This document shows positions 1-64,000 of a stretch of 64,000 nt of DNA, in pieces. Every line of letters begins with the position of its first letter. Within the stretch, counting starts at the first letter, position 1. The stretch is from an uncultured Planctomycetales bacterium (GTDB lineage: Bacteria; Omnitrophota; Gorgyraeia; Gygaellales; Profunditerraquicolaceae). Where the stretch lies: NCBI GenBank assembly GCA_964354795.1, contig CAYHBB010000040.1, positions 76,593 through 140,592 on the forward strand, in the 5' to 3' direction. The notes beneath the pieces are model-generated. The model had not been told where the DNA came from. It made no database searches and saw only the letters and a program-made list of their open reading frames with translations. The position numbers and the translations under genes were made by a program.

Positions 1-3000
1 TCCGCCGTCTAATAAGACTGAATTTGCGATTATCAATGTCGGCCTTTTGATGTCATCGGGGTCTACGGGACTGACCCTGCCTACTTCTTGACGCGCCTGC
101 CTGATCGCCAGCTTTAAATCCCCGGGGTTCCAGTACTCAACCGCGTACAAAGAACGTTTGATCTTAACGTCTTGGCGCAAGATGCGGGACAGGCGCCGGT
201 ATAGAGTCCGGTAGTTGCCGTGCTTACGCACTTCATTTCTGATGAACCTGCCTCTTGTCTTAACCAGATGTTTAAACAACTGCTCCTGCCGGCCGGTGAT
301 TACATCATTTACGGTTATGACCATATTCCTGTAGCCGACATAGGCATCCGGATAACGCCCGGACTTCTTATCTTTAGGACGGGGCAATAAATGTTGTGTC
401 CCGTCGACCATGATAATAATCGGCTGTTCGTTCAATATCCGATCATAAAGGGCGGCGCTGAAAAGATCAGGCTTGATATAATACGGCTTTTCATGGCATT
501 CGGTCGAGCCGATCCTGGCATAGTGGACTTCTACGCCGTCTTTAGCCAGATCTTTAAGGGTCGGACTGACCGCAAAACGGCCGTAACTTAAATTAGGGAC
601 CACCCAGACCGGACGGCCTATTTTATCTGCCTGTTTCTTTACCTCCATGATAAATTGCCTTAGCCTGAATGCTTCGTAAGCCGCGTACTTTACCTCTACC
701 TTCTCAACATGGCTTAATTGCACCTTTGTCCCCCGGTTGTTAAAATTTTTCAGGATCACTAAATATTCCTTAAAGCTGTATCTGTGCGGCTGTTTGAGCG
801 TCCTGTCCACGAGGCCCCTGAAAGTGGTATATTCCAGGTTGACGCTTAATTCATCATGAGGGTCAAAGGACATCTCTGCGGACTTAAACTTGCGCCTGAC
901 CTCACCCCAGCCTTTTATGGCCTCGTCGATCTTATTTTGTTGAGCCTGCCTTATCAGCTCCCGCATCAGATACTCTGTAGGTTCAAAACCTTTTATGCAA
1001 AGCTCTTTTAAGGCGTATACGGCCATCCTGAATTCAGAAGGATTACGGGTTAAATCAACTACCAAAGGTAACATTTTGTTCAAGGCAAAAGTGGGGTTCC
1101 TGCCGGAATCAACTAAAGCTATCCCTAAGGATAGCGCTTCATTTAGCTCTTCTATGTTTCGGGTAACTCTGGATACGCAAGGCAAAGTATCCTTCATGAT
1201 CTCATGATAATCATAATGCTTATTTTTCATCGAAAGCGCGAACTTCTCAGCAATACCGAGGCCTTGGATGAAAACATCTTTCTCTTTTCCTTTGGAGAGA
1301 ATAGCGCTTAAGCTATATTTAAACACGTGGCGGGGATTTATACCTACATTCTTCAGGCGCGCCGAGCTGTTTAAAAGTTCAATCAACCGCATATCCAATA
1401 TCCGCTTATTAAGCGTAAGCAAGATCTCTATTAAAACCTGATATGGCTCATTATCCTCGACTTTGCCCTCTTTGACTTTACTGTAGATTTCGCTGAGGAT
1501 GATTAACTTATTTCTTGGCCCTTTAAGAAAACTCAGCGTATTTTTTATTTGTAAGTAGATATGGATGGTTTTTGCGAATTTTACGCCCAGCGCTATCAAT
1601 AAAACCGGGATCGCTATTGCTAAAACTATTGCAATATAATGAACAGGCAGCATGCCCAGAAAACAAACGGGAACAATGCCAAGGAATGTGTTCGGCGACA
1701 GGGCTTCTGCCTTCCTGATCCCTTTTAATATTTTCAGGGTAGCCTGCCAGGATCTCGCGCCCACCAAATCTTCGGAGAATCTTACTCCCAGCCTTTGTAA
1801 ATTCTGCAGCGCCTCGCCTTCCGGCTTTCTGCCTACGGAGACTATGCTTGCATGCGGCAAAGCGCTGATGACATCCGCATCCAGCGCTCCGGCAGAAAAA
1901 GAATCCCCTATAAAAAGCACTTGCTCTAAAGGGATACTCTGCCTGATATCTTTTTCAATGCTCCTTAAGAAGTGCTCTGCCGCTTTTGCCTTACTGACTC
2001 CGCCGATGAGCACGTGAATCGTCCTCTTACCCCCCAGCCTGGGAACCAGATGCCAGCCACGTTCAAGGAATAGATCGGTCAACGCATCAATGGCCCTGCC
2101 CCTATCTAAGACATGGTCGATGGTGATAACCCCTTGGCGTTCCGGGCCGGTCAGGCGAACATGTTGCCCCAACCTTGCGGCTACAGCTTTCCTGACGGCC
2201 TCAGGATCAACGGACAAAACCGTATTCTCTGTAGCGTCATAAATTGCCTGACTAAGCAGCATTCCCTCATCATCGAATCTGTAGCATTTTGCTCCTACTG
2301 CCGGATAAAGTACAAGATTCTTCAGTAAATGTCTTTTCTCTTGCCAATTCTGAGAAATCGGTTCAAGGATATATCTAGCGATCTCATCTATTCCCTGTGT
2401 AGTAATCAAGGCTATCCGCGTCCCCTGCTCTAGCAATCCGAAAAGCTCTTCTAAAATGCCAGTGTCGATGACAGAGGTAGTGTCGGTAATGGTCCTATCA
2501 ATATCAAAGATCATCACTGAATACGGTTTGAGCAACCTAACAGGCCCTGCTTCAGATTTTGGCTCTTCTCTGGCTACGGGAGCTTCTACCCTAGGCTTGG
2601 CGGTTTGCGGCTGCTTGAGTTGTTTTATAAGGATACTATTCTCTTGCTTAAGCCCGGCTATTAACTGGCTGGCTTTACGCCATCTATAGGCCATGTAAAG
2701 AGACAAGGCGCCTAAGACAGACAAAACGACCATTAGGGCATTTCGGTTATCGTTTGTTCCACAACCTGGTTTCAAAGGCTGTATTTTAGGCGTAACTGTG
2801 ATATTTTCAATATTTGAAGCAGCTATGACAGGAGAAACTACGGGGATTTTCTGCTCAACAACCGACTCTTCTATTTTGGTATCAATAGGCGGCAACTCGA
2901 CAGCCGGCGCCTCAAGCGGGATGGTCAATATGTTGCCTGGATGGATAACCGCAGGATCAGCTATTTGGGAATTGGCTGTAACAACAGCATTGGTAAAAAC

Positions 3001-6000
3001 GTGCCAGGGGCATTTATCACTATAATCATTCTTCCAGATATTCCATAAACTGTCGCCTTCCTTGACAATGATAGTATCAGCCGCCCTCTTTTGTGGCTGA
3101 GCAACGGATTCCGCGTTTACCAAAGATGCAAATAAAGTTGAGGTAAGGATTGTAGCCAGCGATAGAAAACCGAGCAGCTCAATAAAAGTTTGGCCGCTGA
3201 CAACCTTTGCGCCCCTAATATAGCGTTGCTCAGGGATCGTTCCATCGCTAAGGGTATTGCGCAGCCGGTTATCTCTTGCAGGACCATGTGGTGCCGGACT
3301 GTCCAGCCCTTTGGTCACCGACCAGAAAAGAATATCCTTGGACGCTCCGATAAAAATAGAACGGTATGTATTCTCTCCTACGAGAAAAGTTATCTCTACA
3401 AAATTATATTCAGCATTAGTATGGACAATTTTGTAGTGGGCATTGATGATGATCTCCAGCGCCTTCTTCAATGGTATATCTGTCCCGCTTAAATCTTTTT
3501 CGGTCAACCCGCCACTGACAAAATCCTGAGCGATTCTTTCCTCTGATTCTCCCGTAGCCCTGGCAAGCTGCATTATCAGGGAATGCTGCATAAGCTTATC
3601 TTTTAAGGGAAGATTCGTTTTGATCTTATTCGCGCCTTCCTGTGGTTTCGCCTTGGACTTTCTTGCTGCTGCAACTACGAAAATCAGCCCTGCTACCACT
3701 AATACGCCAAAACCTACCACTAACCAAAACGGAAAACCCAGAATATTCGACGGAATCGTTGCAGTAATAGTAGTTATTGAGGCAACTAACGCAAAATCCA
3801 AAGGCACAATGGAAAAAATACCTTCCGGGCGGGGATGGGTTTCTGCGGACGATTGAGGATCTGCTGGTAATGAAGAATCAGGCATAGAGGATTTCTTTAA
3901 CAAATCAGCTACCTGAGCGGTTAACTGCGAGTTTCTAAAAGGCTTATGCATTATGGCATCTATAACAGTAAGATCCAAACCCCTGATCACATAACCGGAG
4001 ATCAATATAACCGGTATATTTTTATTCTTCGCCTTTACCTCTTTAGCTAATTCTCCGCCGTTTTTACCGCCGGGCATTTGAAAATCAGTTATGACTAGGT
4101 CAATATTTTCTACCCCTAATATCTTAAGCGCCTCTTCGGCATTAAGGGCGGTCAAAATATCATATCCTTCGCCACTTAACACCGCATCAAAAGTGCGCAA
4201 GATCATGGGTTGATCATCCACGAACAGTATTTTCTTCTTAGCGACAGATCCGGATTCAGTGATATCTTGAGAAAGCTGAATGGCCCCGTTTCTCGTTGAG
4301 TCCTCTTCTTCCTTCTGCGTATTCACGGGCTGAAGGCTGGGGATGACTTCCGAGGCGGGTTTGAAAACGCTTATCTCGGCAGAGCTTTGCCTGGCCTCGT
4401 CAGCAGCGCACTCCATTATCTTCGAAGACATTGCAGAAATAGGGATTCTCTGGTGCGGTATTCCGGCTCTGGCTATGCTATCCGGCATCTCTTCACAATA
4501 CCTGCTCCCATCTTTTGCAATTTCGCTTGGCGTAATATGCTGGACAAGAACTATGCCTCCGTTGCCCGCAATTTCTTTCGCTCCCGCCGTTCCATCCGAT
4601 CTCAAGCCTGATAAAACAACACAAATAACATCCTTATTGAATTCTGCTGCTGCCGATTTAAATAACAGGTCGATGGGAGAATACGCAATAACCTTACTTC
4701 TCCTAATGACCTCCCCACTAGCCGCGCTATCGAATAAAACCATAACTACCGGATAGCCGTTGTTATCTTTTTCAATCCAAGCATCCCGGCTAGTAACAAG
4801 TATCATCCCGCGCTCTAAATAGAACCTCTTTGGCGAATCCACACTTGGTTCACACAAAATGATCTTTCTCGACTTGTTTTGCTGAACAAATTCGGTAAAT
4901 GCGGCATAGCAGGGCCGTAAGTGTTCGTTAATTATGACCGGGGGATGATCCTGCGGCAATCCTTCAATTATCTCTTCGATCGCTTCATATCCACTGCGAG
5001 ACGCGCCGATCACGATTACCTTTCCTTTGTAGTCGATTGGCTTATGCGTGTCCGCTTGAGGAGTGGAAATTACTGTACCGAGAAGTATTGGTAGAATCGC
5101 AAGTGCCGCAATCGGCCCGGCGGTGGCTAGAATACTTGTGCCGATGCCGGCAAGGGCAAGCTTAATCGCGGCCCAATGCGGCGCGATAAAAAACGTTATC
5201 AGCGCGCCTACCGCCACCAACCCAATGAGCGCGATCAGGCTTACCCCGAGCTTAGTCGAGGGGCCTTGGCCTTCCTTCGGGGACACCCTTCCGATTTCCG
5301 CCAAAATTCTTGGCGGACTCGCCGCGTTTTGTGGCGAGGGCTCCCTGGCTGTCCCTTTTGCCATGAGGCCCCTTAACCTGATTAACTCATCACGGAATTG
5401 CTTTAGTGAAGAATACGCGCCGCTTCTTACCTCCCGGTGAAAAGCGCTAACTTCGCCGATCAGCCTTTGATTAACAGCTGTGTCATCAGAGAATCTTAGG
5501 CCGGGGATGATTTCCTCTATGAGCCTTCCTCCTTGCTCCCACAAAGCCGCATTAAAAAGCAAGCATTCTAGCTTAGGATAAATAGATAATTCCGTTTTTT
5601 TGTAATCAATAAAAATAACGTCTCCATTAGCAGTGACAATTTCATTATTGTCATTAATATCCCATATGCCGCGCACCCCTTTTTCCTCAAGATAGATGCA
5701 GATCTCGGTGATTTTTATCACGATATTAAATACCTCATCAACATATTCGCTAAGCGGCCTGCCTTTATATTTAAGAAAATGATGCGAGAAATCCCTGCCT
5801 TCTACATAAGGATAGACTATCGCCTCAGAATAGATATACGTATCATAATCGTCGGAGCTGATCCATAATCTCTTTCCGGGGTTTAATTCCGGCCTTGCGG
5901 TCATTCTGCGGGGACGATACACTTGAGAGTAATCGCCGCCTATCCTGTCAAAAGCCTCCTCTATGCCGTCACAGTGCGCCGTGTCGGAACAACCTTCCCG

Positions 6001-9000
6001 CTCTGTTTCAAGCTTGCGAATAACCACTAATTTCGCGGTATCCTCATCTACAGCTAAGTCCAGGCGCCGGGTATCTAACCGTCCGAAAGTACCGAGGATA
6101 AGGTATCTTTTATTTTCCTCCCCAAAGCTAAGCACTAACTCTTCGCATGGTTCTGGGGCCAGAACAATCCCTACCGGCCTTTCCCTGTTGACCGCTATGC
6201 GCATTAGTTCCGCGATCATCCTGTTCCTGCGGGACCTGTCCTCAAAGAAGAACCTAAACAGGTCCTCCGTGAACGCATCAGGCCTGTTTTTCATCCAGAA
6301 GAACAGCTCATCAAAACTCTCCCATTTCAGATCTTCCACTTCCCAAGAGCCGGGATTAGCCTTATCAAGCCTGGCCATTTCCTCGGCGATCCTATCCGCG
6401 TTCCCCTGTAGCTCATAATGTATCTGTGCCAGCGTTTCCGCCCTTCCTTTTATCCTGGACATTTCTTCTTCGGTCATGGGCAGGATAAAAAACGCCCTTC
6501 TTTCCTTATTGGAATCAGTTTCTGAATCATAAATAAATTCCCCGGGGACTCCCACCGGAATAAGCCTCTGCTTTAATCTTTCCTTAAATGTATCTGTCAA
6601 CTCCTCTTGGTCATATATATGCATCTGCTTTGTGACTTTATTGACAACTGAATCCAAATAACTAAAACCCGCCTCCAGATGCCCGCCGAATATTGTCCAT
6701 AAGTGGGGGTATTTCTTGAATCCTGCGCGCTGCTGCAGGATAAGGCCAAAATCCGGGGTTACCAGGGCGACATTTGCGGTCCTGTGCCAAAGGCCGGCGG
6801 CTTCAGCGATATTCTTATCTGCCTGGCCGATTACCTTTTCTTGGCCGGTAGTTGAGTTAGGGTCCAAAATATCGATTATTCTTCCGCTAGGATATAGAAA
6901 CGCAGGGTCCTCCTGCGGCAGGCGCAGCCTTCTTACAATTTCTTCGATCTTTTCTGCTTCAACGCCCAAGGATTTAAGATTTTCTCTTACTTGATCCAAC
7001 GCGCAGGCGCCAAGAAGGGCCTCTTTGCTTTTTTGCGCTTCCTCCCTTTCGCCGTACAGCTCTTCGTAATGGTTCATGACGCCGTTCATGATGCCGGAGA
7101 TCTGCTCCATCGTAGTATCGAACGGCATCTCGCATGTTAACCCGAGGAGAAAACGGTCGCGGTGCGCAAAGCGATCCATAATGGAGGATACTTCAGCCGT
7201 CAGCTCGGCAGGATCTTTCGCGGGAGTTATCTGTGAAGCCATGATGTTACCGATAAGATAATTTCCGGAAGCGGTAAGGACTTCGTACGCCTTTTCGAGA
7301 TCGACCTCCTCGTCGATGCTGTAGGCGTCGACGTTAAGGCCGGTCATGTTCGACAAAAACGGCGTCGAATCGCCGCAACCGTGGAAAATGACACCGATGC
7401 CCTTCGCCTTCGCCGCGGCGGCTACGGCGTTCACACGCCGCGTGATGCAATCGTCGTAATACGACGGCGTCATGATGGCGGTCGAAGGCTCAAGGATGAC
7501 GATAGCGTCCGCGCCGGCCGCGGCATACGCCTCGGCCTCCTGAGCAGAGACCTTTACGCAATAATCGAGGAGCGCCCCGAATGTCTCGGGATCGTCAAGC
7601 ATCGCCATGGCGGCATCCGCTTCGCCCACCAGGCGCGCGGCGAGAGTGAACGGCCCGATCACGTAGCCGACCTTAGCGACCTTGTTGCCGTATTCCACGC
7701 TGAGCGCGGCCATGGCGTTTATGAATACGCCGGTGCGGCCGTCCCTGTCGATCATCGGAAGTTTCAGTTTCGCGATATTCTCCTTCGTCAGAGTAAACGC
7801 CGGCCCAAATAACCTGCCTTCCTGGTCGATATGTTTCGGCCCGAAAACGGACCGTACCGGAAGCGCGCCGCTCTCTTTATTCGCCTGATAAACGGCCTCC
7901 GGCCATGATGAAAGATCCATCATCGTAAATACTACGTCGAGCCTGAGAGAATCCTGGACGAACCGTATAACCTCAGCCTGCTTTGACGGATCGGTGGCAA
8001 GATCCTTTACCGAATAGTCTTTACGCTCGTGTTCGTTAAAAAATTTCACTCCGCCGAAACTTATAAGCGGCATCCACATGGCTCTATTGCGCATATCGTC
8101 AAAGGTGATCCTTGCGGCTTCGGGCGCCGGAGCCGCTTCGCCTTTATCGACCCTGCCCCCGTCCAACGTCTCGCGCACCACCGCCCCCAGCATGCAGGCG
8201 CCAAGGATTAGCGGCAGGCTGTTCGGCGCGACAAACGCCGCCAACGCGCCCAGCGCCACAAACTCAAGCAACGCAATCATGCCTTGGCCAGACGCAGGGG
8301 ACACCCTTTCGATTGGCTTGATGGGTGTCCCTTGATTGGGTTCATGGGTGTCCCCATCTTGACAGAAGGAAGAACGCAGGACATACACAAAGGTCTCTTC
8401 TTGGATAAATACAGGCGCTCCCTCGCCCATATCATTCCATTCGCGGGACTTGACTTGGCGCTTATACGGCCCAAACTTAAAATAAGAATGATTTTCCCTG
8501 CCGGAAAACTCCTTTATTTTACTTTCGATTACGCGCGAAGCCTCAACTGAACAATGATCATCCGGGAATACTGAATGCCGGAAAATAACCCTTGCCTGCG
8601 CGACGAGATACTCCTGGACATTCGCAAAGAAACATTCAACATGTTCCTTATATACATATCTGTACCCGCCGTCAACAGACCTATCCCAACCGTCGACTGG
8701 AGAAGGAGTAAAGACAATAAGGTTAAATCTCCTTCCTTCCAGCCCCTGGAATAGATCTCCGCAGACAAACTCAAGCCTGCCCGGATTTGCGTTATTGTAA
8801 CCTAAGCTTTCGGCATTGGCCCGGGCGCAATCGACCGCCGCCTCTTTTACATCTGTAAATGTCACATGGCCGGCTCCCCGGCTAAGCATGATCAATCCTA
8901 ATATGCCTGAACCCGTGCCCAGATCAAGGCAGCGCTGGCCCGAGATGTCCCTGCCTAAGCGCTTTGCGATCACCCCTGTCAGCATGCCGCTGGGGGTGTA

Positions 9001-57000: not shown

Positions 57001-60000
57001 CTCCTTGAGTGAACCGGTCAATTCCTCAACAGATACCCTTGTCTCTTGAGGAAGGTGTAAAACGTTACCAGGATGCTGCTCAAAAAAGACGATCATATCT
57101 GCGATATTTGCCAAGGCTTTGGCGGCATTCTGCACAAAAATAGGGTTTCCTCCGCGAGAAGCATTGACCACTATTTCAACTTGATTTGCCAACAAAGGCA
57201 TGATTTCTTTAATTGATCTAATGCCCCCGCTTATCTGGCTGTTAATGTTGCCTACTACATCCTCGTTTATCTGGCCGCTCATTTCCTTAAGGCAAGGGTC
57301 TCTTACTTTCTCAAACAGCTCCGCGATCTTCTCGTCTGTTTCCATGACATCAAAATCTGGATTATTTACCGCCATCCCCAATAGGCCTAACATAAGTAGC
57401 GATACAGGCTGGACAAAGACAGCTTGCCCTTCGGCAAGACTCAGGGCAAGCATGGCTCCGACGGCCAACATAAACACCCACTTTGAAAGCGCTTTCCTGA
57501 GATTTAAAAATAAAAGGCTACGGTAAGATCCGGGAGGAAGCGAATAGCAGCTCTCCTCCCAAGTCTTATTGGTAGATAAGATCGCGCTTATCAATAAGTA
57601 TTGACTTGACCTTGGCCATGAGGATATCCTTGAGTTCCTGGCTGGCCCGTAGCCAGACGCCGTCTGCGGTTTTCCCCCTGACTGTTCCGTCGGGCTCGAC
57701 AAGGAAACAAAATTCAGACCACCAGAGAGGATGTTTAACAAATACGAAGAGATTTTTTGTATCAGGCAAGATGCGGATGATTTCCAATTCCTGTAAATTG
57801 ACCATTTTGTTACCTCCTTATTATTTTTGGCCGCTGCCAAGGATTTAAGTAAAGCCCCGTTGCAAAACGACAAATCTTCCCCACCAGCCACGGAAGGTAG
57901 AAGATTGCCTTTTTCAATTCTTTGCAACGGAGCATGACAAGTCTTTAGCGCCCTGATTAATAAAAATCCTAAACCCGGTGTAAATAATCCGTAGAATCCT
58001 GAATCGCTCCTTAATGCGGCCTTGGCCTGGCCCGGAGCAGAAAACAGGATGAAACATCCGATAAATGTAAGGTTCGAGATGGCCTGGCCGGTCAATAACC
58101 AACCGAAGAGAATAAAGCCTAAAGCGCATGCCCTGCTTATCCCCAATGTTATCCGCGTAGCCATATAACTGCCGAGATGCAGCTTAGAAACCAAAACGGC
58201 TCTCAGTATCCTTCCCCCGTCTGTAGGAAATACAGGAAGAAGGTTCAGGGCCGCTAAAATCAAATTAATGTAGGCAATGCTGCTTAAGATCTGTGCCCAG
58301 CTGCTGACCCCTATAGTAAAGGTAAGGCCCCCGGGCACAAGCCAGAAACTGAGCGCGAACAATAACGGCGCCAGTAAGATATTCACCAATGGACCGGCAA
58401 ACGCGATGCTCATCTGCTCCCTGGGAGTGCGGCCAACCCCCTGCATGCGGGCGAATCCGCCGATGATCGTCAAGAGGACATCGTTGGTCCTGATATGGTA
58501 TTTGCGCGCCTTCAAGATATGCCCAAACTCATGCAAAGTCACTAAGCTGAATATGGCAGCGTAAAGAACCAGTCCCGGCAATCCCCATGCGTTAATCGCA
58601 AGGAACAGGCCCAGATAAAGGCTCCAGTGCGCTCTTACGGGGACTCCTTTTACGGTAAAGAGGGTGATATTCAATCTATCAAGAACACCATTCAAATTTC
58701 CATTCAGGGAAGCTGACAGCAGCGGAATCGGTAATCCTAGACAGGCAAAAGCAGCGCCCGAACAATCGCTCCTTAAACCTTCCAATAAATTCTTAAAGGC
58801 GCTTTCTTCGATATTACTCTTACCCATATCGTGCTCTATGTCTTCAGCAGTGGCCCGTTCATATTTTTCCCTGTTATCAGCCAGAGCAAACCCGTCCAGC
58901 TCATGGGTCCCCAGGACAGGGGAAAGCCTGTATTCCTGCGTCCTTATCACCGTAGGCCAGATATAAATGAAATCCCCCAGCATGGAAACTGAATGTTCAA
59001 TATTTTGAGATTGAAGCGCGGATACGCACTTCATAAAGGCGGATTTGAATCTTTCCGTGCCATCTGCCTTCATGCAGATCACAGATAAAGGATAATCAGT
59101 GAGTACATATACCTCGGCTCCCTGAGCCTCGAAGGCGGCTTTTCTGGCAGCGCTTTCCACGGGCAGAGAACAATCATAATAATTTGCCTGTATGTGCAGA
59201 TGGAAGACAGAAGCTAATTTCCCGGGATTTATGCCCAATTTTAATCTTGGGGAGCGGGATAATCTCCTTATTGCCAGCATTGTCTCAAGGGCCGCCTCGC
59301 TGACCTGCTGCGGAAATTCTTTTTCGGGCTCAGGAACGATTACAATGTGGTACTTAAAGGAAGCATTCTTATTGATATCTACAGCGATATGCCTTGCGTC
59401 TATCACTAAATCCAGGAGCCTCCTTACAGGGCCCTCTTCCTTCAGGAATTTATTAAAATTCTTATTGGGATCGAACTTTAAAACATCAATGTTAGAGCTG
59501 CTCTTTCCGGTATTGCGCGCCTTCTTCGCATTATCGTAATCTGCGCGTCCGGAATTGAACCTCATCATCCACCTGCCTACTTCCCTGGTCTCGGTAATGT
59601 AAGGGTCATACGCGAATACCCCGGGCTGATGCGCCCTTATATCCCAAAGCTCCTGAACCGTAGTATCAAAATCTAATACTCCCTCCACAATCAGCCTTCC
59701 CAGTATCCAGCTCGCCTGCCCTTGAGAAATTTCATCGATAGCCCTGATAAATTCCTTCTGCCAATCGCTCACTCTTTGCTCGGATTCACGAAAGACCATA
59801 TCCTGGTAAAGATTCAGGATTATCTGGGTCTTTAATTCCTCGCTCAGGACGCTGTTCTTTCTCAAGACTTCTTTGACCTGCGCTGCCTTGACTGCTTCTG
59901 AGGCCTCGCTAGGTTGCGCGCGATTGTCATTGAAACCATCAGGATTATTATTGTGCCACTCCCAGGCGCTTCTGATTATGTCTTTAATCCCCATTGTCGG

Positions 60001-63000
60001 GGTGATACCGAGCTCTTGCGTAGCTTTCGTGTGACTAATAACCAGCCTGTCAACTTCTCCCTCGGGTTTTCCTTCAATGATGATCTTTTGGGCGATATCG
60101 GGGCAGGACTGCGAAGCAATCTCGATCACCGCCTGCTGAATTTCCTTTATGCTGAATCCTGTGCCGCTTCCGAAGGCAAAGGTATCAGACCGGCCAGTTT
60201 CACATAAGCGCTCAAATGAAGCCGCGAACAAGCGCGCGACATCACCGACAAAAACAAAATCGCGGATAGGCGTGCCGTCTTTGGTAGCGGCCATTACACG
60301 CCGCCTTATCAGGGGATTCGCCTTAAGCTCAGGCTCGCTATAGATATGCCAATCGACATTGTTTCTTTTACCTAAAGCGACAAGGAGCAATCTGGGGATT
60401 ATATGGGTTTCGGGATCATGGTCTTCGCCGATATTCAAGCTTCCGCCTGCCACATTGGCATAGCGTAAAGTCACGTATTGTATGCCTTTTTGCCTGCTGT
60501 ATTCCTCTAGTACCTTTTCTACAAGGACTTTTGTCCTGTTGTAGGGATCTGAAGGTGAAACTTGTGAATGCTCATCAAAGGCTTCGTTTTCACTTAAGTT
60601 CGAGTCTCCATAAACAGCTCCGCTGGAGGCCTGGACGATATATTTGATCCCGTGCCTGGCCATGGCCTCAAGCAGCCTGATCTCATTGATCACATTGTTG
60701 TAATAATAATCCAGCGGCCTCTTTAATGATTCATAGCCCATGGTGTTGGCGGCAAGATTGAATACGGCGCATGGTTTATATTTCGCGATCACCTCTTCTA
60801 ACCTGGCAGTATCCGCTAAATCTCCCTCCTCGAATATCGCCTTGCTTTGCACGGCGGCTTTCTGGTGCCCCTTACGCAGATTATCAAAGACCACAACGCG
60901 ATAACCGCGGCTTATTAATTCCCTGATCACAAAACTCCCCACGTATCCTGCGCCGCCGACAACGAGCACAACGGCCTCGGGCTTATTTCTATTTTTAGTA
61001 AACTCTTGCATAAAAGCGCTGATCCTCTCGGCTACTATTTTTTGCGTTGCTTCGTCCTTGGCATAAATCCTCTTATAAAAGTCCTGGAACTCCCGGGAGA
61101 AGACAATTGGAATCCACCATTCCGGATGCTGGGTGTACCAAGAAACCACTTCCTGAACGCCATCTTTTAAGGAAATAACCGGCTGCCATCCTAATTTAGT
61201 GCGTATCTTGCTGTCATCCACAGGATACCAGGGGTCATGCCCGGGCCTGGGAGGAATAGCATAAATATACTCATCAAGGTCCTTTCTTTTGTTGGCAACG
61301 CCCATGGCTTGCAAAATCTGGTAGACCATCCAGAGATTACGTTTCTGATTTCTTCCCGCTATATTGTAAATTCCTCCGGGTTCTCCCCGATGGAGCACGG
61401 CGTCGATCGCCCGGGACATATCCCAAACAGAAAGCCAGTCTCTCTTACCCTCGCCCTTATTAAAGAGAGGGATCTTTAATCCCAGCATCTTATGGATGAT
61501 CGTAAAGGGCAGGAGTTTCTCCGGATATTGATAAGGGCCATAGTTGTTAGTCCCGCGGATCATCTTTGCCCCGAGGTTCCAGGCGTGGTTGAATACCTGG
61601 ACCATAAGGTCTGCTCCGGCCTTGGAAACGCCATAGGGGTTGCCGGGAGCAAATTTTGTATTTTCTTTGAAGCGCCTGCGCTGCTCCAGCCTCGCCCCGC
61701 CATAAACCTCATCGGTGGAAATGTGCAGCATCACCACTTCATTGCGGCCGGATTCTTTACGCGCCTTATTCTCATCACGCACTGTTTCCAGCATATTCAA
61801 TGTCCCGCCTACATTGCTGTCCACGAATGGCATCGCGCTATAATTTGACCTATCCACGTGGCTTTCTGCGGCAAAGTTGACTACAGCATCCACTCTTCTT
61901 ATCAGCGCCTGCACACATTCTCTGTCCCTTACATCCCCCTTCACGACTTCAAGCCTGGGGCCCAAATCCTTATCCCGCATGATATCCTCTAGGTTCTCCC
62001 ATCTGGCGGCATAGGTAAACTTATCCAGCACAATTACCCGGTAATTCGGGTGGACTGACAAGAAATAACGCACGAATACAGAACCGATGAATCCTGCTGC
62101 TCCGGTGACCAGAACCGTAGGCTTACCGCTGGTGTTGCCTATACAAAGATCGTCTTTGGGATGCCCGGGATTTTCCTTTACCGCACGGGGCACTGGATAG
62201 GCAGAGGCGAGACTAGAGATCCTCTGTTCATTGCTGGGAAGGCCCATATCTATCAGCATCGCGGTAAGGATTTCATTTATTAAAGAACGGGACAGGACCG
62301 GATCTGTGTCTATGCGGCTTTTTAATTCCTCCCACATCTCAATAGCCTCTTTTGATTGCGCTTGGACTTGAACATCCGCATAACCTTGCGGGTGGGTCTT
62401 ACGCCATAAATAGAAATGCCCAACCATATCCTGCAATCTATGGCGCGGCTTCCAACCAAGCAATTCAGTGGCCTTCCTGGGGGAGACCACGATTCTATCA
62501 ACGTCGAATCTTCTTTTTCCCTCAATAACGATGCGGCTGTCCACATCGCGATGTTCCGGCCTGGCAACTTCCCTGACCATAGATACTACTTCCTTAGCAG
62601 ATATGCCTTTTCCTGTCCCTAAATTGAAGGTGTCTGATCCTTTGCCATCCTCTAAATATCCCAAAGCCGCAAGATAAGCAGCCACGGCATCCTCTACATG
62701 CACATACTCTCTTATGGCTGTGCCGTCAGGAGTATTTGCCAGGCAGCGGTCAGGGTCTTGGGCAGACCATAAGACTCTTCTGGCGGCATCTTCCGCTACA
62801 GAAATCAACGTCGGAATCAGGTTCGTAGGCTGCAAAGTGTCCTCTCCCATGGAGCCATCCGCTAATGCTCCGGCGATATTTGCGCAGCGTAAAATTACAA
62901 ACTTAAAACCACAGTTTTCAGCATAGCTGCGGATAATCTGCTCACCTAAGTATTTTGTCCTTGCGTAGGGGCTGACAGGAAACACCTCGCTCGTCTCGCT

Positions 63001-64000
63001 GAATTCCTCTCCTGCTGCCAGATGTGTTTCTCCGTATATGGCTACACTTGAGGCAAAGATAATATTTTTCGCCTTATAAGACCTCATTACTTCCAAGAGA
63101 TTAAGCGTAGCCTGTATATTGTGGTAATAATAGTCTAGGGGCCTTAAGAATGATTCGGGTATTACCTTAAGGGATGCCAGATGGAAGACTGTTTCCGGTT
63201 TATATTTGGCAAACACCGCTTCTAGCCTTGCTTGATCAGTAAGGTCCCCCTCCTCAAAGTCCACTCCCTCAGCTACTGCTTTTCTATGGCCGTTTATTAA
63301 ATTATCGTAGACTATGACTTTCCTGCCCTCGGCAAGCAATGCCTTAACCAATATGCTTCCCAGGTAACCCGCGCCTCCGGTGACAAGTACGGTAGAGCTT
63401 TTTGTTTTCACCAGCGCGCCGCGGCTATTGTCTTCGTTAGGAAATTCCAGCTCTCTTAAGCTTGCGCTGTCGGATACATTGTTACGAGCCATCTTACGAT
63501 GCCTGTGGACTAAAGACTGCATAAAGAAATCGGGATTATTTGCCAAGATCTTAAGCAATCTCTCTGTGGGGATCAATAATCTGCCAAGCTGCTCCCAATC
63601 ATCCGCACTGGCAGCAAGCGAGAATCTAAGCGGAACAAGCAACAGGATATCTTCCGCATTGCCTAACCGGCGATACATGGTGCTATCCGCTTTTATGACT
63701 TCAATCGCTTTTCCATTGTTCTGGCTTGCCACAGAAGAAAGGATCTTGTCGGTGATCGGGCTTCTGTAATGGCCCCAGTAAACTACTTTTTCTATTCCCG
63801 ACCTTACCGCAACTGTAGCGCAGACCGGACAGGTCTTCAAAAGTGTAAAGCAGTCGGCACCCTTAAGCTCTTTCTTACGGCCGTTGAATATAGCCTGCGC
63901 AACTGCCCGCTGTTCAGCGCATAAGGTATGTTTGTACGCACCCTTCAAATGGCGGCAGACATTATTTTCAAATTGCGCCGAGGACAATTCCGTGTTCACC
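1..64000 (-). CDS. Internal fragment of a single giant multidomain ORF, open at both window edges, at least 21,300 codons. Predicted membrane-tethered multi-enzyme polyprotein.
   Basis: Sixteen hand-reverse-complemented segments at 3, 8160, 17460, 21600, 33540, 45000, 57480, 57900, 58260, 58560, 59220, 59967, 60960, 61140, 62160 and 63492 are all in the frame whose codon first bases are divisible by 3, and each gives sensible protein motifs. No TTA, CTA or TCA in that register on the + strand lines I checked: 1-300, 30001-30060, 40021-40080, 50041-50100 and 57481-57900. Junctions between modules at 17281-17460 and 21361-21600 read through with no stop. The supplied ORF track lacks this ORF, so the track is filtered or incomplete. 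Confidence 0.72.
1750..2520 (-). other. HAD-superfamily (Cof/IIB-like) phosphatase module.
   Basis: VMIFDIDRTITDTTSV (revcomp of 2485-2520; DxDxT motif I) ...RIALITTQGIDE...LFIGDSFSAGALDADVISALP. Confidence 0.45.
2950..3110 (-). other. LysM (peptidoglycan-binding) module.
   Basis: DTIIVKEGDSLWNIWKN (revcomp of 3030-3060) ...ADPAVIHPGNILTIP. Confidence 0.5.
3900..4290 (-). other. REC receiver module.
   Basis: KKILFVDDQPMILRTF (revcomp of 4200-4230) ...IDLVITDFQMPGGKNGGELAKEVKAKNKNIPVILISGY. Confidence 0.55.
4350..5060 (-). other. CheB-type protein-glutamate methylesterase catalytic module.
   Basis: KVIVIGASRSGYEAIEEIIEGLPQDHPPVIINEHLRP... then DVICVVLSGLRSDGTAGAKEIAGNGGIVLVQH.... Confidence 0.5.
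5090..5290 (-). repeat. Hydrophobic two-helix (TM-hairpin-like) linker repeat, representative copy.
   Basis: Encodes EGQGPSTKLGVSLIALIGLVAVGALITFFIAPHWAAIKLALAGIGTSILATAGPIAALAILPILL. The + strand core is ...cagcccaa(g/t)(a/g)agcgcgatcaggc...ggcc.... Confidence 0.6.
7050..8150 (-). other. Uroporphyrinogen-decarboxylase (URO-D/MtaA-like) superfamily module.
   Basis: ITFDDMRNRAMWMPLISFGG... (revcomp of 8101-8160 confirmed) ...VIFHGCGDSTPFLSNMTGLNVDAYSIDEEVDL... Confidence 0.35.
8190..8300 (-). repeat. Hydrophobic linker repeat copy.
   Basis: SPASGQGMIALLEFVALGALAAFVAPNSLPLILGACMLGAVV. Confidence 0.5.
8550..9150 (-). other. Class I SAM-dependent methyltransferase module, HemK/PrmC-like with an NPPY-type motif.
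   Basis: GQRCLDLGTGSGILGLIMLSRGAGHVTFTDV (revcomp around 8900-8930) ...FNLIVFTPSP. Confidence 0.55.
9450..9860 (-). other. REC-like receiver module.
   Basis: IKILVIEHAEEDLELLVRQLRKIDPAFIIVSAHSAEEAIEIFKSGQGPFDIAITDLHMCTMDGDQLASEIKTIKPDTFVIL. Confidence 0.4.
9890..10040 (-). repeat. Hydrophobic linker repeat copy.
   Basis: RSGQGLIALLGLMAFGALTAFVIAPHWAAVKLAIAGAFMHHGPPIAALGLGLLFIAA. Confidence 0.55.
10650..11250 (-). other. HAD-superfamily hydrolase-like module.
   Basis: LRFVVFDIGNVVVYFDF (revcomp of 11210-11245) ...KVAFLSDTNHMHLAY...MLYFDDRQDFVVNAESCGI. Confidence 0.35.
11690..11780 (-). other. HExxH zinc-metallopeptidase-like motif in a module of unknown family.
   Basis: LADFVHEAYGHMLNEIKYG (revcomp around 11725-11750). 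A second such motif, IHEIIGHMWARA, sits at about 42820-42850. Confidence 0.3.
12700..13400 (-). repeat. Copy B of a duplicated coding module of about 650-700 nt. It is roughly 90% identical at protein level to 15500-16250.
   Basis: Out-of-frame shadow ORFs in the track are near-identical between 12934..13221 and 15733..16020, and between 12563..12826 and 15389..15613. In-frame translation repeats GLTQIEKDRLTGELFERIKVDPDFQWEYKFCDGSNLMIPARCDLTESDFDYRILPFADIFPQEGFIDGHPELSALVEFPP... Confidence 0.6.
13850..13990 (-). other. P-loop NTPase (Walker A) module.
   Basis: RPVVVLIKGKPGSGKTLIRNTLLDWL (revcomp of 13900-13925). Confidence 0.45.
14270..14600 (-). other. TPR-like repeats.
   Basis: LGLKYCEEERYHEAIPFFKDVLVSNPNIAAAHGNLGYIHYFLGNEKTAITHWAKAAILDD. 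Confidence 0.4.
14610..14770 (-). repeat. Hydrophobic linker repeat copy.
   Basis: GNSGQSLIALFGLVAIGALITFFIAPHWAAIKFALAGIGTSVLATITFFVLGG. Near-identical at nucleotide level to 5090-5290. Confidence 0.6.
15370..15500 (-). repeat. Hydrophobic linker repeat copy.
   Basis: SGQSLIGILGLVVLAFILAPILITGPIHASALGLGIFNLGA. Confidence 0.5.
15500..16250 (-). repeat. Copy A of the duplicated coding module, paired with 12700-13400.
   Basis: In-frame translation GLSQTEKDRLLSELFERIKANPDFQWGYKFCDGRNLMVLARCDLTESDFDYRILPFADIFPQKGFIDGHPELSALVEFPP..., nearly identical to the 12.7-13.4 kb module. Confidence 0.6.
16250..16360 (-). repeat. Hydrophobic linker repeat copy.
   Basis: SGFSLPLLLGLVALGALAVAGLMHPAGALGAVMVAA. 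Confidence 0.5.
17280..17400 (-). repeat. Hydrophobic linker repeat copy, hand-verified.
   Basis: Revcomp of 17281-17460 gives ...GDGSIFSDSGQSLIALLGLVALVFILASILIAGLIHAPSALALGI. No stop on either side. Confidence 0.65.
18150..18750 (-). other. Bacterial sugar transferase module, the polyprenyl-phosphate sugar-phosphate transferase catalytic domain of PglC/WbaP/WcaJ type.
   Basis: GPVFYTEERIGYKGRPFRIYKFRTL...LFDELPQVVNIIKGEMSLLGPRPL (revcomp of 18360-18405) is the hallmark motif of this family. Confidence 0.62.
19560..19690 (-). repeat. Hydrophobic linker repeat copy.
   Basis: LITLFVGLLALGVLAAIIGLLSHPATAGPFAALSAVPLLAA. Confidence 0.5.
20700..21350 (-). other. Gfo/Idh/MocA-family NAD(P)-dependent oxidoreductase module.
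   Basis: KVGVILIGAGRYALSAHLRAL (revcomp around 21195-21225) ...LLAVVDF... then IAVIVSTHPVSHKAYVSWALNAGYHVLVDKPLT. Confidence 0.5.
21400..21530 (-). repeat. Hydrophobic linker repeat copy, hand-verified.
   Basis: Revcomp of 21361-21600 gives ...LVSPQPNKKPTSGQGLIALLGLVVLVYILVPVLIAGLIHAPPAAAIVLPLALIGAIIQ. It is in frame with both flanking modules. Confidence 0.65.
25400..25815 (-). other. Response-regulator receiver (REC) module.
   Basis: KRLLLVDDEASILSGLKRLL (revcomp of 25782-25812) ...IITDLEMKFMDGLSFARTMRENGSKSYIVLQSGRG. Confidence 0.5.
26000..26330 (-). other. PAS sensor module.
   Basis: MINENGEIVWVNEAEVKFLGLNSAEDMAGRYVWEFVAPKCQEEV...FEREYQFADGSVRSVWITEQQVLNKKGRVIGIISSLHE is PAS-like. Confidence 0.45.
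26450..27250 (-). other. Glucosamine-6-phosphate deaminase / 6-phosphogluconolactonase (NagB/Pgl/DevB) family module.
   Basis: VNVIFPGGRTVNSY..., ADIIVVGVGSDGHIGLNSQG (revcomp around 26715-26750), ...KKVFLLALGKRKAKILKQALMESGTPVSMLL...TVIVDQGA. Confidence 0.5.
29450..30350 (-). other. Protein-kinase-like (eukaryotic-type Ser/Thr kinase fold) module, possibly degenerate.
   Basis: Catalytic-loop-like QYVHDQGILHRDFGPRNIWI (revcomp around 29895-29930) and a DFS in place of DFG (IIYDFSCAIL). Confidence 0.4.
32100..33650 (-). other. Superfamily-1 (Upf1/DNA2-like) helicase / P-loop NTPase module.
   Basis: Walker A LIQGPPGTGKTTTITDIV (revcomp of 33481-33540). Motif II IVLVGDHMQLPAF at about 33100-33130. 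A later QGQENKVVIVSMVRS...RINVSLSRAK C-terminal helicase motif. Confidence 0.6.
38000..38450 (-). other. Transglutaminase-like (TGc) cysteine-protease-like core module.
   Basis: KKAICATYARLFEVMARVCGLDAGTVPC...EYHHVANIVRLSDGTFALVDVTN (revcomp around 38235-38265). Cys, His and Asp core residues sit at the expected spacing. Confidence 0.5.
38850..39010 (-). other. Sigma-70 region 4 (4.2) helix-turn-helix module.
   Basis: LTAREEIVMRNYLGMSARLSDKELADELCVSEGRIKQLKAKAIRKLSHP (revcomp around 38880-38920) is a canonical sigma-70 region 4.2 pattern. Confidence 0.55.
43350..44500 (-). other. GT9-like (ADP-heptose:LPS heptosyltransferase family) glycosyltransferase module.
   Basis: ILVFADFKTLIISDLEEETITLWPLVTGLMKKFPDA... 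then VVIINLYAADISKRS...GAYLVFTCGWG... then LAQDACFSHLANGVYGIPVTSI (revcomp of 43413-43440). This matches the heptosyltransferase C-terminal motif shape. Confidence 0.4.
44570..44700 (-). repeat. Diverged hydrophobic linker copy.
   Basis: LQIILAVFALGAVIAGLVHPASLLVFGLLGALIQA. Confidence 0.45.
44800..44975 (-). repeat. Short LPSVAG-containing repeat units, about 61 nt each. There are two copies here and one more at 57885-57950.
   Basis: + strand gccacggaaggtagaagat(c/t)gcctttttcaattctttgcaacgg(g/a)gcatgacaagtcttta occurs at 44912-44972 and 57889-57949. In frame it encodes KTCHAPLQRIEKG(D/N)LLPSVAG. An extra LPSVAGG-encoding copy sits at about 44800-44830. Confidence 0.55.
49850..50350 (-). other. 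HD-domain metal-dependent phosphohydrolase-like module.
   Basis: LIALLHDIGEPSKSPHHAEAGAPIV...IFHHVDLG (revcomp around 50105-50130) shows the H...HD...H pattern. Confidence 0.4.
52150..54150 (-). other. Alpha-D-phosphohexomutase (phosphoglucomutase/phosphomannomutase) module.
   Basis: YVTASHAIA at about 53880, MTDPDGDRLV at about 53290 (the DxDGDR Mg site), and FAGEESGGEIFGP at about 52870 (the GEESGG sugar loop). Confidence 0.55.
57340..57480 (-). repeat. Diverged hydrophobic linker copy, hand-verified.
   Basis: Revcomp of 57421-57480 gives WVFMLAVGAMLALSLAEGQA... followed by VFVQPVSLLMLGLLGMAV. Confidence 0.5.
57566..57805 (-). CDS. 79-aa small ORF in an alternative frame, embedded inside the giant ORF. 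It is preceded by TAA TAA and a GGAGGT ribosome-binding site.
   Basis: ATG at 57805 with GGAGGT 7 nt upstream and two stop codons in this frame just before it. Translation is MVNLQELEIIRILPDTKNLFVFVKHPLWWSEFCFLVEPDGTVRGKTADGVWLRASQELKDILMAKVKSILIDKRDLIYQ, which looks protein-like. The giant-ORF frame stays open across it but encodes low-complexity S-rich sequence here. Confidence 0.4.
   Translation of the reverse strand: MVNLQELEIIRILPDTKNLFVFVKHPLWWSEFCFLVEPDGTVRGKTADGVWLRASQELKDILMAKVKSILIDKRDLIYQ
57885..57950 (-). repeat. LPSVAG-containing 61-nt repeat copy, located just after the M50 protease module.
   Basis: See 44800-44975. Revcomp of 57841-57900 gives LPSVAGGEDLSFCNGALLKSLAAAKNNKEV. 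Confidence 0.55.
58000..58720 (-). other. M50 (site-2 protease) family intramembrane zinc metalloprotease module.
   Basis: HEFGHILKARK (revcomp of 58501-58560) and LNLLPVFPTDGGRIL (revcomp of 58201-58260) match the HExxH plus LDG signature of S2P/M50 peptidases. There are hydrophobic helices between them. Confidence 0.6.
58900..59600 (-). other. HIT-superfamily, GalT/Apa2-like (HxHxQ) nucleotidyltransferase or phosphorylase-like module.
   Basis: KLASVFHLHIQANYYD (revcomp of 59161-59220) carries an HxHxQ motif of the galactose-1-phosphate uridylyltransferase branch of the HIT superfamily. It sits directly after the two epimerases and the dehydratase. Confidence 0.35.
59930..60990 (-). other. 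Second NAD-dependent sugar epimerase/dehydratase module, GalE/WbpP-like.
   Basis: VGGAGYVGSFVIRELISRGYRVVVFDNLRKGHQ (revcomp of 60901-60960), ...SPSDPYNRTKVLVEKVLEEY..., and it ends AWEWHNNNPDGF at about 59967. Confidence 0.55.
61080..62160 (-). other. rfbB: dTDP-glucose 4,6-dehydratase (RfbB)-like module.
   Basis: KPTVLVTGAAGFIGS (revcomp of 62101-62160), ISTDEVYG, NPYGVSKAGADLMV, and the C-terminus EVVSWYTQHPEWW (revcomp of 61081-61140). Same frame as the GalE-like module. Confidence 0.62.
62370..63492 (-). other. galE: UDP-glucose 4-epimerase (GalE)-like NAD-dependent epimerase module.
   Basis: Reads VLVTGGAGYLGS...YGETHLAAGEEFSE...SPYARTKYLGEQI... and ends ...LGWKPRHRLQDMVGHFYLWRKTHPQGYAD, which matches a GalE C-terminus. 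The reading frame stays open into the next module. Confidence 0.6.
63495..64000 (-). other. Cytidine/dCMP-deaminase-like zinc-binding module, partial. It continues upstream beyond the window and reads in frame into the GalE-like module.
   Basis: Minus-strand translation gives ...KHTLCAEQRAVAQAIFNGRKKELKGADCFTLLKTCPVCATVAVRSGIEKVVYW..., with CAE and CxxC zinc-ligand motifs. No stop before the MARNNVS start of the epimerase module. Confidence 0.4.

Follow-up and report, generated by a model that had tools for sequence, protein, structure and literature searches.

Open reading frames (ORFs) of more than 20 kb are present in 77 of 116 Velamenicoccia genomes, and the giant protein of V. archaeovorus measures 39,678 amino acids (aa) with 42 transmembrane (TM) segments (Seymour et al. 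2023, PMC10066038). A set of 46 genes exceeding 90 kb, with proteins of up to 85,804 aa that all contain numerous TM regions, has been divided into Archaeovorin and Dockerin types; in the Archaeovorins SecA_DEAD, C39 and HEAT domains are frequent, and the N-terminus carries a signal peptide together with a C39 or S8 peptidase (West-Roberts et al. 2023, 10.1101/2023.11.21.568195). A further study found 3,650 proteins of at least 10 kAA in 18 samples and catalogued 916 long proteins of up to 147,155 aa, 94% of them membrane-targeted, with 80% of the sequence clusters being singletons; one of its classes, the 'multi-enzyme metabolic cluster', has recurrent PGM/PMM, receiver, HAD, HD and methyltransferase domains (Nielsen & Lui 2026, 10.64898/2026.06.07.730766). 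Here we describe a 64,000-nt stretch of contig CAYHBB010000040.1 (hereafter the window, always meant at its full length), which is very probably part of a genuine single giant gene of the Omnitrophota kind. Taken whole, that is, a giant gene of the Archaeovorin type or of the 'multi-enzyme metabolic cluster' class together with the mechanism proposed below, this explanation seems to us a likely one.

The gene was first proposed from the letters of the DNA (the sequence-only reading), which had claimed a minus-strand frame without stops that continues beyond the window, and both claims stand. In one minus-strand frame, whose codons begin at plus-strand coordinates 63999, 63996 ... 3, a six-frame count found no TAA, TAG or TGA across 63,999 nt, equal to 21,333 codons; aa numbers given here count along this frame from the high-coordinate end of the window. 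The remaining five frames contain between 623 and 1,565 stops each and never stay open for more than 1,026 nt. Given how densely stops occur in the two other frames of the minus strand (6.3–7.3%), a run of 21,333 stop-free codons would arise by chance with a probability of about 1e-600 to 1e-700, and since all three stop codons are absent no reassignment of the genetic code is needed. The frame is open at both window ends and coding over its whole length. Its codon-position composition is uniform over 22 bins of 1,000 codons (G1 0.31–0.39, G2 0.14–0.20, purine at position 1 0.59–0.67), Pfam domains in the frame span residue 21 to residue 20,361, and catalytic signatures are intact in the deaminase, an epimerase, the M50 protease, the PglC-like transferase, the helicase, CheB and two of the three receivers. 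Two unannotated modules give dN/dS ratios that indicate purifying selection in this frame: 0.24 for the block at 3160–3757 against its Omnitrophota homologue, and 0.37 between the internal paralogues of a duplicated 227-aa module. Neither tRNA genes nor Rfam matches were found in the window. Pairs of a Shine–Dalgarno motif and a start codon were not enriched in frame (2.1% vs 1.7%) and none was placed at a module start, which argues against an operon-like series of internally initiated proteins.

The ORF listing of the window gives three plus-strand ORFs of 207–310 aa, which lie opposite the giant gene and are best read as its shadows, again in agreement with the sequence-only reading. That reading had expected pipelines with length or annotation filters to miss the gene; the giant frame is absent here for another cause, since the listing leaves out any ORF that runs past an end of the source.

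Could the frame be an assembly artefact, a chimeric concatenation or a collapse of separate genes at the repeated linkers described below? The window does contain dispersed repeats of 30–300 nt at 60–97% identity, but its longest exact direct repeat is 63 nt and lies inside the duplicated 227-aa module rather than in a linker, and the linker copies are 45–83% identical at the nucleotide level. A random join would keep the frame in one case out of three and non-coding flanks would add stops, yet there are none. The uniformity of codon-position composition extends to GC content (0.44–0.53) and to a GC skew that is negative everywhere, and relatives in independent assemblies are likewise open up to their contig edges. 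We consider an artefact of this kind very improbable.

By its domain content the protein is a mosaic in which enzymes for sugar nucleotides and glycans stand beside signalling domains, a helicase and an M50 protease (Table 1). At least 21 non-overlapping Pfam families reach their curated cut-offs and about five more fall just under them; no family exceeds three copies, a number reached by the SDR enzymes and the receivers. Some 21% of residues lie inside Pfam matches and about 79% are without any. The deaminase match at the edge of the window starts at profile position 48, and this domain therefore begins upstream of the window. GxxGxxG and YxxxK are intact in the epimerase of the SDR block. 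Receiver 2 retains the phospho-acceptor aspartate, the threonine and the lysine, its acidic DD pocket being replaced by IEH, and it may be a pseudo-receiver. A TPR is also present, between the YrbL-type kinase-like domain and the HAD hydrolase in protein order, and relaxed Pfam scans add weak hints of NUDIX (E 0.004), P-loop, HEAT (E 0.067) and GT1 domains. Sequence searches of the PDB and structure prediction contributed little: five dark spans totalling 6,753 aa and a profile of the unannotated module at aa 6410–7187 have no relatives in the PDB, and AlphaFold2 models of two unannotated modules, the duplicated 227-aa module among them, built on 3-sequence alignments, reached pLDDT values of 42 and 37 and are unusable. 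A by-eye guess that the module at aa 6410–7187 is a GT9-like glycosyltransferase was dropped for want of Pfam support at E <= 0.5.

The usual explanations for bacterial ORFs beyond 10,000 codons, a conventional non-ribosomal peptide synthetase/polyketide synthase (NRPS/PKS) megasynthase or a repetitive adhesin, deserve practically no credence here and are refuted by this domain content. Size alone, and a weak 'KR' Pfam cross-match at aa 203–275, would speak for them, but the KR match overlaps an SDR epimerase scoring 378 bits, and no condensation, adenylation, ketosynthase, acyltransferase or carrier-protein domains were found in the window. Nor were Ig-like, cadherin or RTX repeats found, no Pfam family has more than three copies, and the only tandem repeat in the 64 kb (Tandem Repeats Finder) is a 23-nt unit present 1.9 times, 44 nt in all, at 8311–8354.

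How, then, does this locus compare with the described giants? With the ORFs of Seymour et al. (2023) it shares a size above 20 kb in a single ORF, multiple predicted TM helices, few annotated domains and poor conservation. It has the defining features of the 'multi-enzyme metabolic cluster' (Class 1) of Nielsen & Lui (2026): at least 10 kAA tiled by many distinct Pfam families with none dominant, recurrent PGM/PMM I–III, receiver, HAD, HD and methyltransferase domains, about one TM helix per 300–400 residues, a large unannotated share and a near-unique sequence. In both, TM helices come at roughly one per 300–370 residues. Unlike what is described for that class, the window, which is an internal fragment only, shows a dispersed, nucleotide-conserved family of hairpin linkers and a module 84% identical in DNA to one from another metagenome-assembled genome (MAG). 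The text of Nielsen & Lui (2026) makes no mention of hairpin, linker, M50, polyprotein, cleavage or fusion, and the preprint of West-Roberts et al. (2023) none of hairpin linkers, M50 or polyprotein processing.

The Archaeovorin type, for which the 39,678-aa protein of Velamenicoccus archaeovorus LiM is the type sequence, has in common with the window numerous TM helices, transferases, methyltransferases, peptidases, PGM/PMM and TPR, domains highly divergent from their ordinary counterparts (<40% identity) and, in all likelihood, an Omnitrophota origin. Set beside the domain repertoire described for Archaeovorins, the picture is mixed: the window contains a methyltransferase, an M50 peptidase, Bac_transf and TPR, whereas GT-B, NUDIX and HEAT are weak hints and a glycoside hydrolase was not found. 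In contrast to Archaeovorins it has no SecA_DEAD, C39/S8, glycoside hydrolase or significant HEAT match, an SF1 helicase stands in place of a SecA-like one, and signalling domains abound (three receivers, CheB, PAS, sigma-70 region 4); the N-terminus, where C39 and signal peptide would be expected, lies outside the window. The operational Archaeovorin set begins above 90 kb or 30,000 aa, compared with at least 21,333 aa for the window, both ends of which are open.

All five named relatives of the modules and the linker are Candidatus Omnitrophota/Omnitrophica, which is strong indirect evidence for an Omnitrophota source lineage; no marker gene lies in the window. The sequence-only reading had thus picked the right parallel in the giant genes of this phylum. 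Its further statement that ORFs of this length are extremely rare in bacteria is correct across bacteria at large and fails within Omnitrophota, where they are common (Seymour et al. 2023; Nielsen & Lui 2026).

One module with relatives elsewhere is that at aa 6410–7187. P0001, encoded by a gene of its own on ENA and JGI contigs and 1,134 aa long, shares 39% identity with it, and P0002 from the Candidatus Omnitrophica MAG GCA_023135115.1 shares 29%; a GTDB scan returned exactly two loci, L005 and L006, both in Candidatus Omnitrophota MAGs. In L005 (about 2000–2465 of JBDRIH010000022.1) the module directly follows a region with a HEIGH (HExxH) metalloprotease-like motif, without a TM segment in between, and the module is thus used in very different contexts. 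The block at 3160–3757 is 84% identical in DNA, between unrelated flanks, to a contig of the Candidatus Omnitrophota MAG GCA_026387455.1, which suggests that one cassette was exchanged recently between giant genes or is strongly conserved in them. Its counterpart there belongs to P0036 (MCX5705733.1), recovered by the linker search, which is 63% identical to the window over 281 aa, has a type-A linker and ends in HEAT repeats; its ORF is open to the contig edge and it is hence the C-terminal piece of a longer gene. Immediately downstream of P0036 (L008 5176–15162) lie two PilZ genes, a sugar ABC transporter (a substrate-binding protein and two permeases), an MFS transporter and a GH2 glycosidase, a neighbourhood in keeping with published reports that link giant genes to systems for carbohydrate import.

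Beyond single modules the sequence stands nearly alone. Its conserved enzyme domains are less than 40% identical to anything in 5.8 billion protein clusters, the N-terminal sugar-nucleotide enzymes give matches of at most 39% identity with no taxonomic signal, and the best database identities, 39% and 63%, each cover a single module. Exact 50-mers taken at the two window ends matched nothing in collections of genome, metagenome and viral contigs. Word-index protein searches returned two matches for the dark region and two weak single-domain matches for the 5,000-aa linker-rich region. A metagenome scan with the alignment of the window and P0036 recovered only L007, an unrelated response regulator, and viral-contig scans with alignment A1 gave no match. 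Synteny with L001, an ENA contig region (ERZ27247725 k141_2366117), is limited to one shared module.

Hydropathy analysis finds 74 hydrophobic 19-mers that merge into 49 charge-free stretches, two of them Rossmann strands, which leaves about 47 and, in all, roughly 65–70 helices in 21,333 aa. About 25 units are 36–62 aa long, or consist of two stretches split by one charged residue, with a central His/Pro/Gly break, and these linkers are probably helical hairpins, bringing the chain back to the side of the membrane from which it came. A hidden Markov model (HMM) built from the hairpin units detects 11 strong copies within aa 14,146–19,629 and a divergent copy at aa 6,425. Their consensus runs ...SGQ[SG]-LIALLGLVAL...-(A)G-L-I-H-A-P or A-P-H-W-... 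into the second hydrophobic arm, the turn also being given as G-x-I-H-A-P. An exhaustive HMMER search of 1.84 billion representative proteins matched two, both long and with several copies each, and the 11-copy family is almost private to this lineage. Within linker sub-families the same codon is used at 58–76% of identical residues, against the roughly 25–30% expected from codon usage, and because of this excess the copies can be traced to recent duplication or gene conversion, which accounts for their conservation at the nucleotide level; the nucleotide-conserved repeats of the sequence-only reading are thus real. The 44-nt tandem repeat sits just upstream of a hairpin linker, beside a dispersed repeat encoding the pre-linker motif I-E/G-R-V-S-P.

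The domains themselves allow the sidedness of the linkers to be judged. One linker each separates domains of cytoplasmic type, namely GFO_IDH from the PglC-like transferase, and, in succession, HAD, receiver 2, methyltransferase, URO-D and CheB–receiver 3. In about 18 of the 23 other intervals between cytoplasm-type domains the helix count is zero or even; those left over cannot be read clearly, one of them perhaps being odd. The sole LysM and the sole transglutaminase-like domain are each flanked by two single-pass helices, and LysM is accordingly predicted to form a periplasmic loop and the transglutaminase-like domain to lie on the side opposite to the bulk. Since most modules need ATP, S-adenosylmethionine (SAM), NAD(P) or phosphorelay partners, and LysM and the transglutaminase-like domain sit between single-pass helices, the bulk of the modules is most likely cytoplasmic, with a few periplasmic loops. 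In the mechanism we propose, the gene would yield a single polypeptide threaded repeatedly through the inner membrane; the hairpin linkers would return the chain to the same side, and successive modules would hang like beads on one face. The protein would then be a membrane-tethered array combining nucleotide-sugar and glycan synthesis with signalling. Whether hairpin tethering to the inner membrane, a cytoplasmic location of most modules and an array function all hold is, on the sequence as it stands, evenly balanced.

The opposite orientation has been the published interpretation for the V. archaeovorus giant protein and the Archaeovorins: an extracellular coat or prey-attacking effector, with exported, TM-anchored modules acting on surface polysaccharides or the cell wall of host or prey. 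The window itself supplies LysM and transglutaminase-like domains, P0001 starts with a Sec-type signal-peptide-like sequence, as do its four large neighbours, and a sugar ABC transporter, an MFS transporter and a GH2 gene adjoin the related ORF in the other MAG. NAD(P) stays firmly bound to SDR epimerases and dehydratases, which could in principle function extracellularly. On the other hand, Pfam scans found no glycoside hydrolase, lectin, dockerin or adhesin domain in the window, which instead encodes three receivers, CheB, PAS, a SAM methyltransferase, an ATP-dependent SF1 helicase and sigma-70 region 4. The PglC-like transferase has a cytoplasmic active site in characterised members, and it is the single TM helices that place LysM and the transglutaminase-like domain opposite to the bulk. 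An extracellular role for the modules therefore appears unlikely, though it is to be taken seriously.

Several observations weigh against the membrane-tethered, largely cytoplasmic array, or against the assignment of the gene, and should be set beside it. Topology is judged from hydropathy only, many second hairpin arms are short (12–17 aa) so that some linkers could be single-pass, and helix parity at aa 16,550–17,587 is ambiguous or odd. The closest stand-alone homologue, P0001, has a signal-peptide-like N-terminus, which suggests that it is exported, and in three Omnitrophota loci the module at aa 6410–7187 is fused without a TM segment. Published topology predictions put the content of the largest multi-enzyme giants outside the cytoplasm. 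Finally, SecA_DEAD (PF07517; all chunks at E <= 1e-3, 20 chunks rescanned at E <= 0.05–0.5), C39 and significant HEAT were not found within the window, and SecA_DEAD could lie outside it.

The gene evolves as a mosaic: linker-plus-module units are duplicated within it, and modules pass between it and other genes of Omnitrophota. Module order is wholly different between the window, P0036, P0035 and L001, and the module at aa 6410–7187 stands after a signal peptide in P0001, after a hairpin in the window, and fused directly to another domain in L005, L006 and P0002. The duplicated 227-aa module is also found in P0004, an otherwise unrelated protein of 4,659 aa. A 22-aa motif, KTCHAPLQRIEKG[ND]LLPSVAGG, occurs in two copies about 13 kb apart, each 100–150 residues upstream of a TM hairpin, and LPSVAGG recurs near aa 6404.

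L001 offers a view of how such modules look outside a giant gene. It holds (4795–23405) five consecutive same-strand genes encoding 509 to 2,423 aa with near-identical signal-peptide-like leaders (M[IK]RKLIS.IIFVF.LQST.AYALS) and, about 20 residues after the leader, a conserved [IM][TA]GAMHE[AG] motif; together these look like an undescribed leader or sorting signal common to large exported proteins. As in the window, the shared, 39% identical module has a conserved G-x-hydrophobic-H turn motif immediately upstream; unlike in the window, the units are separate genes of 592–2,423 aa, each with its own leader, and the neighbouring modules are not in common. The window has five G-x-hydrophobic-H-[EAP] turns where shuffles predict 0.5, and in an alignment anchored on the module the GAMHE motif of L001 coincides with the G-L-V-H-P-A turn of the window hairpin, the two hydrophobic arms appearing as insertions. 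The linker HMM gave no matches in the related loci L001–L006 and left the L001 leaders undetected. There are hints, then, that linkers and leaders are related, which are only suggestive.

These likenesses bear on another possibility, compatible with either membrane orientation: that the product is a polyprotein, cut at or near the linkers by the embedded M50 protease or a signal-peptidase-like activity to free dozens of enzymes, the ORF being in effect an operon without stop codons. An intact site-2-protease-type M50 does lie inside the ORF; the TM segments that make up the linkers contain a helix-breaking turn (G-x-I-H-A-P or A-P-H-W) which is conserved and of a kind such proteases may prefer; in stand-alone homologues the GAMHE motif, immediately behind the signal peptide, lines up with this turn; and homologous modules occur as separate genes elsewhere. 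Self-cleavage, there by C39 or S8 peptidases, was also raised by West-Roberts et al. (2023). However, the relationship of leader to linker depends on one alignment anchored by the adjacent module and the linker profile misses the L001 leaders, the strong linker family is confined to aa 14,146–19,629 of the window, and M50 proteases normally need a prior site-1 cut. Polyprotein processing is, in our judgement, quite improbable. A bolder version is a long shot: the linkers would be retained or donor leader regions of formerly independent exported proteins, the turn both a recombination-prone cassette boundary and a processing or sorting site, and the product of the ORF a polyprotein that sits in the membrane and is split into dozens of units, its own M50 perhaps being the protease.

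Table 1. Features of the 64,000-nt window (nt coordinates on the plus strand)
Feature	Position	Strand	Evidence and remarks
Internal fragment of one giant ORF, 21,333 codons, open at both window ends	1..63999	-	zero stops; codon-position composition uniform in all 22 bins
Cytidine/dCMP deaminase-like	63778..63939	-	PF00383 E 3.6e-7; CAE + PCxxC
Three SDR-type sugar-nucleotide enzymes: epimerase (aa 204-461), GDP-mannose 4,6-dehydratase-like (aa 630-950), epimerase (aa 1011-1264)	60208..63390	-	PF01370 378 bits, PF16363 370 bits
Peptidase_M50, site-2 protease-type intramembrane metalloprotease, multipass	58024..58632	-	PF02163 E 4e-20; HEFGH + NLLPVFPTDGG intact; hydrophobic stretches
22-aa motif KTCHAPLQRIEKGxLLPSVAGG, copy 2 (aa 2018-2039)	57884..57947	-	97% nt identity to copy 1
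Phosphoglucomutase/phosphomannomutase (PGM/PMM) domains I-III, divergent	52693..54048	-	PF02878/02879/02880, E 1e-7 to 5e-4
HD phosphohydrolase domain	49936..50334	-	PF01966 E 4e-5
ORF best read as shadow ORF	48803-49735	+	opposite giant gene; no Pfam match
GT-B / phosphorylase-like region, weak	45973..46848	-	PF00343 E 8e-4, PF00534 E 0.15; hint only
22-aa motif, copy 1 (aa 6343-6364)	44909..44972	-	97% nt identity to copy 2
Unannotated module (aa 6410-7187)	42439..44772	-	TM hairpin in front (aa 6440-6478); conserved in Omnitrophota MAGs
ORF best read as shadow ORF	41498-42121	+	opposite giant gene; no Pfam match
Glu/Leu/Phe/Val dehydrogenase-like NAD(P) domain	40264..40911	-	PF00208 E 8e-13
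Sigma-70 region 4 helix-turn-helix	38875..39024	-	PF04545 E 1.7e-6
Transglutaminase-like core	38104..38346	-	PF01841 E 3e-6; single TM helices either side (aa 8433-8452, 8739-8757)
ORF best read as shadow ORF	32809-33702	+	opposite giant gene; no Pfam match
SF1 helicase (AAA_11/AAA_12)	32122..33615	-	E 6e-36 and 1e-29; Walker A GPPGTGKT
Protein-kinase-like region, under Pfam cut-off	29680..30078	-	PF00069 E 3.4e-6, 27.1 bits vs cut-off 31.7
Glucosamine-6-P isomerase/6PGL-like + PAS + response-regulator receiver 1	25492..27144	-	PF01182, PF00989, PF00072; canonical receiver residues
Linker-rich region, 11 copies of ~65-aa hairpin linker	5113..21564	-	HMM built from hairpin units
Hairpin linker copies 1-6	21364-21564, 19522-19728, 17242-17430, 16219-16404, 15337-15543, 14620-14808	-	linker HMM
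Hairpin linker copies 7-11	11284-11487, 9904-10077, 9193-9393, 8161-8340, 5113-5307	-	linker HMM
GFO/IDH/MocA NAD-binding Rossmann segment	20794..20937	-	PF01408 E 7e-8
Bacterial sugar transferase (PglC-like initiating phosphoglycosyl transferase), then YrbL-type kinase-like domain	17518..18639	-	PF02397 E 1.6e-36, PF10707 E 1e-7; DE dyad + PRP intact
Duplicated unannotated module, copy 1 (aa 15946-16172)	15484..16164	-	82% aa identity to copy 2
Duplicated unannotated module, copy 2 (aa 16879-17105)	12685..13365	-	carries one copy of 63-nt repeat
HAD-type hydrolase, slightly under Pfam cut-off	10729..11241	-	PF00702 E 2.4e-5
Response-regulator receiver 2	9565..9825	-	PF00072 E 4.8e-9
SAM-dependent methyltransferase, MTS type	8704..8970	-	PF05175 E 2e-9
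Uroporphyrinogen-decarboxylase (URO-D) family domain	7084..7794	-	PF01208 E 2e-39
CheB-type methylesterase, then response-regulator receiver 3	3910..5016	-	PF01339 E 7e-22, PF00072 E 2e-17; GASRSG in CheB; canonical receiver residues
Block shared with Candidatus Omnitrophota MAG contig JAPLLR010000048.1 (GCA_026387455.1; L008 1577-2180)	3160..3757	-	84% DNA-identical over 604 nt; flanks unrelated; ~200 aa
LysM-like peptidoglycan-binding domain	2917..3069	-	PF01476 E 3e-4, 21.0 bits vs cut-off 20.9; single TM helices either side (aa 20275-20296, 20420-20438)

No larger protein-coding genes are known than giant genes of this type. TM-studded multi-enzyme giant ORFs in Omnitrophota have already been reported by several groups, in thousands, and the window is a further example with an essentially unique sequence; what it adds is a defined family of hairpin linkers, a domain-based argument for the same-side return of the chain, and evidence for the shuffling of modules. 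It also carries a practical warning, in that ORF listings which drop ORFs at sequence ends hide such genes. With eleven hairpin linkers between domains whose side is normally unambiguous (receivers, CheB, SAM methyltransferase and URO-D as opposed to LysM) and with an embedded intramembrane protease, the locus is a compact test case for these giants. Direct evidence of mosaic evolution comes from linker copies that share synonymous sites and from a module 84% identical in DNA to that of another Omnitrophota genome. Were the linkers indeed former leaders, the turn would let Omnitrophota shuffle enzyme modules between giant genes.

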